Virus record (IMG/VR): IMGVR_UViG_3300009514_000363
Coordinates: 1 to 61,545 of that record
Strand: one strand, 5' to 3'
Length of the DNA: 61,545 bases
Source of the DNA: a virus
Lineage: Duplodnaviria > Caudoviricetes
The notes beneath the pieces are model-generated. The model did not search any database. It was not told the DNA's origin and saw only the letters and a list, made by a program, of their open reading frames with translations. Positions 28,631 through 29,501 of this stretch are shown in pieces. The number at the start of each line of letters is the position of its first letter. Within the stretch, counting starts at the first letter, position 1. The translations under genes were made by a program, and so were the position numbers.

Positions 28631-29164
28631 TTATGCCGCCGCTAGAGCATCATAAACCTGTTGGAAATTGACTGGTTTAAAATCACCACTAATGATTATA
28701 TTGGCAACCTTTTTGCTTTTACCATATGAAGAATACAAAGGTTCTATTTTTGGCAATTCAATGGAAGCTAACATGTCAACTGTAACAGTATGGTTAAACG
28801 GTGCCAAAAAGTCAGCAAGGCGAGTTGCACTACCTTCATACACTTTTTGACCATCTACAATCTTTTTAGCAGTTGATTGTAGTGACATAAGCGAACTCAT
28901 ACCAAAATAAAGGCCATGATTAAGATATGTGCCAGATTTAAGTTTATTGGTGTTAGTCACTGGCGTAAATCCACGATCTGCTGCTCTACCACGCAAGATA
29001 TTGAATAATATGTGATGTGATGCATCCAACCATCCATCTTCGCGATAAGTTCCCCATTCGCTAGTTTTCAAGGTTTTCTTTGCTTTTTCGCTGTTAACGG
29101 CGGATTTCCACGCGGCGCGGAATGAAAGGTATTGTTCTTTAGTGTTAAAATTTGATTTAGTCAT
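28631..29164 (-). CDS. hypothetical protein downstream of the amber-containing leader
   Basis: 177 aa; HHILFNILRG..RGFTP motif; its AGGAG RBS lies within a hairpin. Confidence 0.75.
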   Translation of the reverse strand: MTKSNFNTKEQYLSFRAAWKSAVNSEKAKKTLKTSEWGTYREDGWLDASHHILFNILRGRAADRGFTPVTNTNKLKSGTYLNHGLYFGMSSLMSLQSTAKKIVDGQKVYEGSATRLADFLAPFNHTVTVDMLASIELPKIEPLYSSYGKSKKVANIIISGDFKPVNFQQVYDALAAA

Positions 29165-29171
29165 GATAATT

Positions 29172-29234
29172 CTCCTATTAATTTTGTTGTGTTTTGACTA
29201 TTAAAAATTGTTAAAAATCAAAACACAATAGGAG
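29172..29234 (-). promoter_or_regulatory. Shine-Dalgarno-sequestering hairpin (translational attenuator)
   Basis: Minus strand CTCCTATT pairs with AATAGGAG and TGTGTTTTGATT pairs with AGTCAAAACACA; the 5' arm is the last codons of the leader ORF. Confidence 0.8.
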
Positions 29235-29313
29235 GATCACGACCACGGTGAACCTATGTGAAGGGGGACTTCACACAGAATTTAAGGATCTAGTTATTGG
29301 TTACTTTTTTCAT
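29218..29313 (-). CDS. leader peptide with two in-frame UAG codons: MKKVTNN*ILKFCVKSPFT*VHRGRDPPIVF
   Basis: AGGA RBS, ATG 29313, TAG at 29292-29290 and 29256-29254, TGA at 29220-29218; starts 45 nt downstream of tRNA(CUA). Confidence 0.7.
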
Positions 29314-29357
29314 GGTAATTCCTATGTTATAAACGTATATATCATTGGTACAGAAAT

Positions 29358-29435
29358 TGGTGCCTGCGGCGGGATTCGAACCCGCGCGGACAGGAATTTA
29401 GAGTTCCCCGCTCTGACCAGCTGAGCTACGCAAGC
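29358..29435 (-). tRNA. amber suppressor tRNA (anticodon CUA)
   Basis: GCTTGCG/CGCAGGC acceptor, A73, CCA; GCTC/GAGC D stem; GGGAA-CT-CTA-AA-TTCCT; GCGGG-TTCGAAT-CCCGC. Confidence 0.93.
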
Positions 29436-29472
29436 GTTGTTCTATAAATTCTGCCATTAACGGCACAATGAA

Positions 29473-29501
29473 ACTATAACATTAAAATTTTTATTTGTCA
29501 A
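29473..29501 (-). promoter_or_regulatory. sigma70 promoter of the suppressor-tRNA/leader cassette
   Basis: TTGACA-17 nt-TATAGT on the minus strand. Confidence 0.7.

Follow-up and report, generated by a model that had tools for sequence, protein, structure and literature searches.

Many large phages that follow the standard genetic code carry amber-suppressor tRNAs for which no target is known, and the question raised by the locus described here is which UAG codons such a tRNA might be reading. The locus lies on the minus strand of a Caudoviricetes contig of 61,545 nucleotides, IMG/VR record IMGVR_UViG_3300009514_000363, which was analysed over its whole length and is called the window below. 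A tRNA with the anticodon CUA is followed there by a short leader frame containing two in-frame UAG codons, and the 3' part of this leader forms one arm of a hairpin that covers the ribosome binding site of a gene for a 177-residue protein, here called gene X. We propose that this cassette is a translational attenuator with amber suppression as its input, and from sequence comparison and computed folds we put the probability of this reading at roughly 0.75. The type of regulator is a familiar one, and the input, amber suppression, would be new. The leader would thereby provide a concrete and conserved target for a suppressor tRNA, in the form of a regulatory element.

Every element of the cassette listed in an initial annotation of the window was found at its place on the minus strand. 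In the order of transcription, with SD standing for the Shine-Dalgarno sequence, the elements are as follows:

29473-29501, minus strand: sigma-70-type promoter TTGACA-17-TATAGT in front of the tRNA(CUA), with 11/12 matches and a TG before the -10 (TTGACA at 29501-29496, a 17-nt spacer, TATAGT at 29478-29473)
29358-29435, minus strand: tRNA(CUA), with the amber suppressor anticodon (ARAGORN; Rfam tRNA 61.3 bits), an encoded CCA end and discriminator A
29335-29344, minus strand: TGATATATAC motif between the tRNA and the leader, the single exact copy in the window
29218-29313, minus strand: leader frame MKKVTNN-UAG-ILKFCVKSPFT-UAG-VHRGRDPPIVF-UGA, 31 codons with two in-frame TAGs
29290-29292, minus strand: first in-frame UAG, codon 8, next base A
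29254-29256, minus strand: second in-frame UAG, codon 20, after P-F-T, next base G
29158-29245, minus strand: long hairpin of 88 nt that pairs the SD (AGGAG) and the AUG of X
29230-29241, minus strand: Arg-Asp-Pro-Pro codons CGT GAT CCT CCT, with the anti-SD sequence CUCCU (29234-29230) inside the Pro-Pro codons
28631-29164, minus strand: gene X, 177 amino acids, the proposed regulated output, with AGGAG at 29176-29172 and AUG at 29164-29162

The leader ATG (29313-29311) lies 44 nt from the tRNA and is preceded by AGGA (29323-29320) and a 6-nt gap. The second UAG sits in the 3' strand of a small hairpin at 29279-29253.

The simplest way to model the operation of the cassette begins with an X mRNA folded so that the SD and start codon of X are paired with the 3' part of the leader frame. 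Ribosomes that start on the leader would encounter a UAG twice, at codons 8 and 20. When RF1 wins at either codon, the ribosome would leave at least 12 nt before the hairpin, the hairpin would stay closed and X would not be made. When the phage tRNA(CUA) decodes both UAGs, the ribosome would enter the 5' arm, where it would probably be slowed or arrested at Arg-Asp-Pro-Pro, whose Pro codons are themselves the anti-SD sequence, and would keep the arm open while a second ribosome initiates on X. The output of X should then vary approximately as the square of the suppression efficiency in the window, with its two UAGs, and linearly in the 26 relatives whose leaders carry a single one, and gating of this kind would give a delay or a threshold after the tRNA gene is switched on. 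We infer from the sequence that the tRNA is charged and reads the leader UAGs, that translation of X depends on read-through of the leader, and that X in effect reports charged suppressor tRNA versus RF1; arrest at Arg-Asp-Pro-Pro is suggested by analogy with known arrest peptides.

The evidence that carries this proposal comes mainly from relatives of X. A search of viral contigs with the single protein returned no relatives, and alignment-based searches succeeded: 18 relatives were collected by sequence search and then 57 loci, from metagenome and viral contigs, by the alignment-based search. Identical upstream regions and those with less than 120 nt of upstream sequence were dropped, which left 41 non-redundant regions including the window, and the 200 nt upstream of X were translated in three frames. 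The identity of X to the window protein falls to about 25-35% in the most distant loci. A common design appears almost everywhere in one frame: Met, 1-13 codons, TAG, at times a second TAG, x-P-P and a stop. Examples are MKKVTDN-TAG-ILKLPFW-TAG-IRRSRGPP-stop, MKTISEKSI-TAG-VHHSRAPP-stop and MNYENIRALPHT-TAG-VHRTNNSHDPP-stop, together with very short forms such as ML-TAG-VLINGPP-stop, MM-TAG-ILNNGPP-stop and MT-TAG-INAIRGP-stop. The leaders are 8-40 residues long and contain no hydrophobic segment.

A strict version of this design, M-x(0-14)-TAG-x(2-32)-[GADSH]PP, occurs with TAG as the read-through codon in 33 of the 41 regions. When the codon is swapped the same pattern is found in 1/41 regions for TAA and 0/41 for TGA, the reverse complement gives 0, and in 200 dinucleotide shuffles the number of matching regions averages 0.055 and never exceeds 1. 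The leader is the only strict match on both strands of the window (123 kb counted), and the other 40 loci contribute 32 matches upstream of X, against 7 elsewhere in 173 kb. The suggestion in the initial annotation that two in-frame TAGs beside a tRNA(CUA) are unlikely to be chance is well supported by these numbers. Under a looser rule for the C-terminus (xPP or xGP), a leader with one or two TAGs lies directly upstream of X in 39/41 regions, with L030 and L048 as weak cases. In the remaining two regions, L025 and L027, a leader of the form MT-TAG-VSTE[R/G]PP is found farther upstream, behind a TTGACA-17-TATGAT promoter, and its frame is that of a PTH2 gene (PF01981, 4.2e-10) lying immediately ahead of X. 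In-frame TAG leaders, which had been proposed as the thing to look for in homologues of X, are thus present ahead of X or of its PTH2 neighbour throughout the set. The two fused frames are:

L027, 2574-2954: amber leader fused in frame to PTH2
L025, about 232-620: amber leader fused in frame to PTH2

The kind of stop codon found inside the 39 leaders argues that these codons are meant to be read. All 52 internal stops are TAG, and the base that follows is always a purine (G in 30, A in 22); a 3' purine favours amber suppression in E. coli. The terminal stop of the leader is TGA in 19 cases, TAA in 16 and TAG in none, and the remaining 4 leaders run on to the gene. A stop serving merely as a stop would rarely be TAG, because 75 of the 78 open reading frames (ORFs) called by a greedy procedure in the window end in TAA (51) or TGA (24) and only 3 in TAG, a recount close to the earlier figure of 2 in roughly 70. 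One of the three, at 7607-8050 on the plus strand, overlaps minus-strand ORFs and is probably no gene. Another TAG-ended ORF, at 56530-57009, has a further stop one codon on.

Several features of the leader sequence point the same way. In L007, L008 and L012 a TGG replaces the second TAG and the frame stays open (LPFWW versus LPFW-TAG), a substitution that would be expected only if the stretch is translated. The peptide before the TAG is conserved, with PFT, PFW, PHT and TDN occurring 6 times each, and inspection by eye finds synonymous variation in the codons for Pro (CCU/CCC/CCG/CCA), Phe (UUC/UUU) and Arg (CGU/CGC). In the 34 leaders ending in Pro-Pro, with one exception, the last TAG lies 4 or more codons ahead of the first Pro of the pair (median 6).

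The second line of evidence is the hairpin. The 91-nt core of the window element folds at -32.6 kcal/mol (z score -7.4), none of 200 shuffles being as stable, and the whole spacer RNA has a z of -5.5. In the predicted fold CUCCU within the Pro-Pro codons pairs with AGGAG of X, and UGGUCGUGAU, with the Arg codon in it, pairs with AUCAUGACUA, the segment containing the start codon of X, so that the start codon is sequestered too. The SD-sequestering hairpin of the initial annotation is therefore real and stronger than it was described to be, since the AUG is masked besides the SD. Constrained folding of the window RNA agrees with the idea, also put forward earlier, that only a ribosome that has read through would open the anti-SD arm: with a ribosome at either the first or the second UAG the SD and AUG stay paired, and once the P site holds the first Pro codon the hairpin disappears (-46.4 to -20.8 kcal/mol).

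The same pairing recurs among the relatives. At least 3 SD nucleotides pair with the Pro-Pro codons in the minimum-energy fold of 34/39 leaders, the AUG is also paired in 23 of them, and z is below -2 in 28/41 regions, while the inner stems have no sequence in common between clades. When the two arms were exchanged among loci, native arms averaged -21.1 and swapped arms -14.1 kcal/mol, and in 32 loci the native partner was among the best five of 41. Trained on 11 sequences, a covariance model found the element upstream of X in 12 more loci; in the window it gave a 105-bit match at the cassette and a second, 20-bit match (E 0.24) that is probably noise. The resulting covariance-model alignment (A5) has 87.2% of cells paired versus 80.3% after shuffling, a covariation score of 0.240 versus 0.123 for shuffles (0/500 reach it) and 0.013-0.064 for slid partners, and changes on both sides in 8 of 14 base pairs, figures that lean towards structure, the alignment having been fitted to the model and three of its rows being likely false (L048 minus strand, window 5573-5643 and L056 2621-2680). 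RNAalifold recovered the two outer helices from an 11-sequence alignment (A3), and found no structure in a 24-sequence MAFFT alignment (A2), in which the inner stems are misaligned. One clear individual case is L009, where X starts with AUGAACUUA rather than AUGACUA and the 5' arm reads UAGGUUCAU. Between the covariation score and the arm-swap test, the search for a covarying anti-SD hairpin among homologues thus came out in its favour.

Two further observations concern the hairpin itself. The apical hairpin motif TTTAATAGTCAA (window 29194-29213, minus strand) is kept across closer relatives even though it is mostly unpaired in alignment A3, and in the clade of L019 and L023 it coincides with a weak promoter-like match. 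A promoter within the hairpin of that clade (TTGACT-18-TACAGT) was considered and rejected, as its 9/12 matches are not above chance (2 found versus 1.3 expected).

The tRNA that would supply the input is linked to the leader in many of these loci. In the 41 loci, with flanks of up to 3 kb, ARAGORN found 71 tRNAs, of which 35 have the anticodon CUA. A tRNA(CUA) is present in 30/41 loci and lies within 650 nt upstream on the same strand in 20/41. The leader mRNA probably has a start site of its own as well, judging from the sequence between the tRNA and the leader. A motif resembling ATATATA[C/G/A] lies upstream of the leader in many homologous loci, and in L025 (146-174) a TGATATATAC-type motif overlaps the -10 of the TTGACA-17-TATGAT promoter, which scores 11/12; by extension, TGATATATAC in the window would be the -10 or start region of the leader mRNA's promoter. 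As a repeated phage promoter motif it finds no support in the window, where there are 6 matches at one mismatch or fewer and 8 expected. In some loci (L019-L023) the leader mRNA could be nearly leaderless.

The C-terminus of the leader resembles known arrest motifs. Ribosomes translating RAPP or RGPP are arrested when the third codon occupies the P site (PMC12992588; PMC10951233), and the mutagenesis of RAPP in ApdA/ApdP indicates that Gly at position 2 enhances arrest, that Ser, Asp and Pro are partly permissive there, and that Arg is irreplaceable (PMC12992588). Among the 39 leaders RGPP occurs 9 times, RAPP 5, RDPP 5 and RGP-stop 3, so that Arg is present in 22/39, and the residue after it is only ever G, A or D, which matches the published permissive set. 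The Arg codon is often CGC, though this mismatches the A of AUG and CAU would pair better, and this usage hints at selection for Arg. The R-x-P-P motif of the initial annotation thus holds in part: an xPP or xGP C-terminus lying over the anti-SD arm is the rule (34/39 pair), and the Arg is found in little more than half of the leaders, with the window's own RDPP a partially permissive variant.

Distant homologues of X, reached by a different route, connect the cassette to cultured phages. A tblastn search with the window's X against GenBank phages gave no match, and when the distant members L037 and L044 were used as queries they did reach cultured phages. The homologues are in Rak2-like jumbo phages, namely GAP32, CBB, fHe-Yen9-04, Serratia BF, the Erwinia pEa_SNUABM phages and XbC2, whose hosts are Enterobacterales and Xanthomonas. 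In the three that were examined, GAP32, fHe-Yen9-04 and XbC2, a leader of the form M(M)L-TAG-xxSTGPPD.. is joined in frame, no stop intervening, to the X homologue:

L063 (GAP32), 2414-2827: in-frame leader and X, GAP32_440
L064 (fHe-Yen9-04), 2414-2827: in-frame leader and X, g452
L080 (XbC2), about 1910-2327: in-frame leader and X, XbC2_475

Read-through in these three phages would lengthen the X protein by about 30 residues, and X keeps its own SD, AUG and hairpin in each of them. Among these phages read-through may have two effects, an extended protein and an unmasked internal start. The cassette is directly testable, because it is carried by cultured Enterobacterales phages (GAP32, CBB, fHe-Yen9-04 and Serratia BF).

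Some side observations belong with these phages. In GAP32 an annotated small coding sequence, GAP32_439A, overlaps an ARAGORN tRNA-Gly. In phage XacN1 (L079) two tandem tRNA(CUA) genes (381-539) are followed 40 nt on by ORF088, with a TTGACA-type promoter of its own, and a GOLLD-like stretch lies at 3001-3314, 2.5 kb downstream of the tRNA pair; neither an X homologue nor an amber leader was found in the XacN1 stretch. The XacN1 paper states that the targets of its CUA tRNAs could not be identified.

A number of points weigh against the attenuator as we have drawn it. The strict pattern was defined after the data had been seen, although the contrast with the controls is judged too large for that to matter, and the 41 loci are homologous, so that their counts are not independent events. 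Of the 31 leaders extracted, just 15 have an SD-like sequence ahead of their ATG, and no hairpin reaches significance in L025 or L027 (z 0.25). On the side of the tRNA, 11/41 loci lack a tRNA(CUA) in the fetched stretch, most of them with short flanks; in GAP32, CBB and fHe-Yen9-04 the tRNA(CUA) lies about 18 kb upstream in a tRNA cluster; and its acceptor and discriminator features point to no single amino acid, the discriminator being A or G across loci.

The remaining difficulties concern the arrest step. Arg is missing from 17/39 leaders (HDPP 6, xGPP 7, others 4), and in the ApdA/ApdP context the window's RDPP is only a partially permissive variant (PMC12992588). The peptide motif and the RNA pairing are confounded, because the Pro-Pro codons are the anti-SD sequence and the Arg codon pairs with AUG, and RNA pairing could have produced R..PP as a side effect. 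With so many leaders lacking Arg, any arrest would not extend to the whole family, and slow termination after Pro-Pro or the simple passage of a ribosome may be enough. Moreover, there is no stop before the gene in 4/39 leaders and in the Rak2-like phages, where simple read-through coupling, or a protein extended at its N-terminus, may take the place of a stall.

Four other explanations of the locus were weighed against the attenuator. The leader might be a mini-ORF that ends at its first UAG, with termination, an RF1-dependent pause or reinitiation being what matters and the later open frame only a side effect of the structure. The very short first segment of 2-13 codons does resemble known minigenes, and pairing with the SD and AUG accounts for the Pro-Pro and Arg codons, but such a stop should be TAA or TGA, like 75 of the 78 window stops, and all 52 are TAG. 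The frame is moreover free of TAA and TGA from the TAG to Pro-Pro in 33-39 of 41 loci versus 0-1 of 41 for the swapped controls, it stays open where TAG has become TGG, and in the constrained folds a ribosome at a UAG falls short of the hairpin, so that we regard the mini-ORF as unlikely. An element acting at the level of RNA or DNA without translation of the leader, such as a thermometer, an RNase III site, an operator for a protein (X, for example) or a T-box-like pairing of UAG with an anticodon, is improbable on similar grounds. The long, stable and covarying hairpin and the TTTAATAGTCAA loop motif of the closer relatives would suit such an element, and inspection of the window by eye shows a UGGU at the foot of the 5' arm that might in principle base-pair with the ACCA end of the tRNA. 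An element of this sort would leave unexplained the in-frame ATG 1-13 codons before every TAG, the exclusion of TAA and TGA from one frame only with TGA or TAA appearing just after Pro-Pro, and the synonymous codon variation; UGGU is missing in, for example, L006, L009 and L012, and Rfam finds no T-box or other family.

A quite different possibility is that the purpose of reading through lies in a longer isoform of the downstream protein, extended at its N-terminus, and not in opening a hairpin. The leaders of GAP32, fHe-Yen9-04, XbC2 and L004, which run in frame into X without a stop, and those of L025 and L027, in frame with PTH2, are what such an explanation predicts. As a general account it seems hardly likely, given that 35/39 leaders, that of the window included, are closed by TGA or TAA ahead of the gene, that the leaders of L002, L026 and L031 run on out of frame, and that SD, AUG and hairpin are kept even in the in-frame phages. 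Least credible of the explanations considered is that TAG is read as sense throughout, as in code 15, in which case the leader would be a normal arrest-peptide leader whose TAG codons are incidental. The window's two tRNA(CUA) genes, the rarity of TAG stops (3/78) and the existence of recoded phages with suppressor tRNAs would all fit. However, within long window frames (at least 100 codons) in-frame TAGs occur only before start codons or in non-coding frames, the large replication genes are all intact under table 11, and the leader pattern, with its TAGs, occurs once in 123 kb. Late genes are absent from the window itself, so the test of recoding in them rests on relatives: in five large contigs of relatives, of which two (363 and 344 kb) are complete, the main matches to terminase and Gp23 capsid contain no in-frame stops, the sole exception being a weak 47-bit secondary match. 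General TAG recoding was rejected on this evidence; TAG is concentrated in the leader, and these phages use the standard code where examined.

If amber suppression does gate the leader, the identity of gene X becomes of some importance. X belongs to no Pfam family, and its sole match in PHROGs is phrog_22448, of unknown function (3.4e-06). A profile search gave 1330 clusters at 50% identity (E <= 1e-3), nearly all of 90-250 residues. The AlphaFold2 model is all-alpha with one beta hairpin (pLDDT 94.2, pTM 0.87); a Foldseek search of it against PDB and BFVD returned nothing at E <= 0.001, and a search of the ESM Atlas with X gave nothing usable. X is thus predicted to represent a large phage protein family with a confidently modelled but unmatched fold. 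Hints of its function come from its constant place among tRNA and translation genes and from the PTH2-X operon of one clade. The window has no PTH2 gene, the relatives G001 and G004 have theirs elsewhere in the genome and without an amber leader, and in G003 PTH2-like genes flank X as well. A 617-nt contig (P0019) that encodes a 155-residue protein with X-like first 37 residues and a RelA/SpoT fragment (PF04607) is likely an assembly chimera and was set aside.

A wider reading is that the tRNA(CUA) mainly operates this lock, so that tRNA, leader and X form an orthogonal key-and-lock circuit, and that X itself acts on termination or on tRNA in a feedback loop. We offer this only tentatively, and rather doubt it in its full form. 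Such a circuit could be a coherent feed-forward timer, or else a live gauge of aminoacyl-tRNA delivery versus RF1. Host defences that cut or block tRNAs or that halt translation would disturb the contest between tRNA and RF1, and X, linked to PTH2 in one clade, would close a feedback on the reading of stop codons. Even the narrower attenuator, if true, would be a case of natural gene control by stop-codon suppression, parallel to synthetic switches that were built independently. It would unite three textbook devices in one element, namely a leader specific for a codon, an arrest motif rich in proline and masking of the SD, and it would mark the X family as one that is expressed only once suppression works.

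The surroundings of the cassette are rich in genes for replication and translation. The window is a whole virus contig, estimated by CheckV at about 18% of a genome, and carries a T4-like replication set (DNA polymerase, clamp loader, helicase, primase and RNA ligase). Its neighbouring features are:

26232-30344, minus strand: translation island with ribosomal protein S21, a QueC-like PP-loop protein, peptide deformylase, tRNA-Ser(CGA), tRNA-Arg(CCU) and a MazG-like protein; the cassette lies inside it
30388-30848, minus strand: GOLLD RNA (Rfam 210.6 bits versus a gathering score of 150), neighbouring context that is kept in closer relatives
30711-30785, minus strand: second tRNA(CUA), embedded in the variable region of the GOLLD RNA
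34830-36002: RNA ligase

Counted together with GOLLD and the cassette, the translation-related cluster spans 26.8 to 30.9 kb of the minus strand and also takes in an HNH endonuclease. The tRNA-Ser(CGA) and tRNA-Arg(CCU) pair is seen again downstream of X in relatives. The tRNA(CUA) of the cassette is as originally described, and the second one, within GOLLD, had been omitted. GOLLD is present in 6 of the 20 homologous loci searched. The arrangement of a tRNA(CUA) inside GOLLD recurs in the relatives L004, L005 and L018; L002 and L040 instead embed a tRNA with the anticodon UAG (Leu), the complement of CUA; and in L023 GOLLD lies directly upstream of X. The window also contains a permuted, two-piece gene for transfer-messenger RNA (tmRNA) at 13038-13299 on the minus strand (94 bits), and L057 has a tmRNA at 2346-2681, just upstream of its X gene. 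A phage that promotes UAG read-through might need extra ribosome rescue.

How does the cassette compare with known systems? The full-text literature searched describes no natural amber-containing leader beside a phage suppressor tRNA, in agreement with the statement of the initial annotation that no described phage system of this form was known. A T-box riboswitch or other known RNA family in the spacer was rejected, there being no Rfam match and no conservation of UGGU. In secM and mifM a ribosome stalled on the leader unmasks the SD of the next gene. The leaders of secM-secA, mifM-yidC2 and apdA/apdP/apcA are the closest in layout, as the 3' end of a short ORF overlaps the arm that masks a ribosome binding site and ends in an R-[A/G]-P-P-type motif. 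Those leaders are released by the pulling force of secretion or insertion and carry a signal or transmembrane segment, whereas the gate in the phage leader would be getting past one or two UAGs, in a phage setting and beside a suppressor tRNA. Because it has no localisation segment, the cassette is not a member of the class of RAPP leaders that monitor localisation substrates.

Other comparisons concern the codon that is sensed. The prfB gene for RF2 has an early in-frame UGA and a +1 frameshift within the gene, and so senses RF2. It resembles the phage cassette in that an early in-frame stop gauges the factor reading that stop, and differs in that the phage would use in-frame read-through by a dedicated tRNA, a separate leader and an SD hairpin, with a target that is apparently no release factor. 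In the trp, his and tna leaders, too, the leader holds the sensed codon and the position of the ribosome picks the RNA structure. They sense a shortage of charged sense-codon tRNA and act mostly on transcription termination; in the phage cassette the sensed codon would be a stop, progress of the ribosome would turn the gene on, and the read-out would be translation initiation.

The same proposed logic is found in synthetic amber switches, which are man-made, while the phage cassette would act through SD unmasking rather than Rho. One such design reportedly places a suppressor tRNA in a feed-forward loop to remove leak. In others, described in a review, a TAG was put into a tna/trp-type leader and downstream expression then needs a suppressor tRNA (PMC6412442). 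Finally, there are phages that recode TAG and carry suppressor tRNAs, for which Borges et al. (10.1101/2021.08.26.457843) raise the idea that suppression sets the timing of expression. These phages, crAss-like and Lak among them, share with the phages described here a tRNA(CUA) and a depletion of TAG as a stop. Theirs is a recoding in which TAG occurs in many late coding genes, whereas here TAG is confined to a regulatory leader and the genes that were examined keep the standard code.

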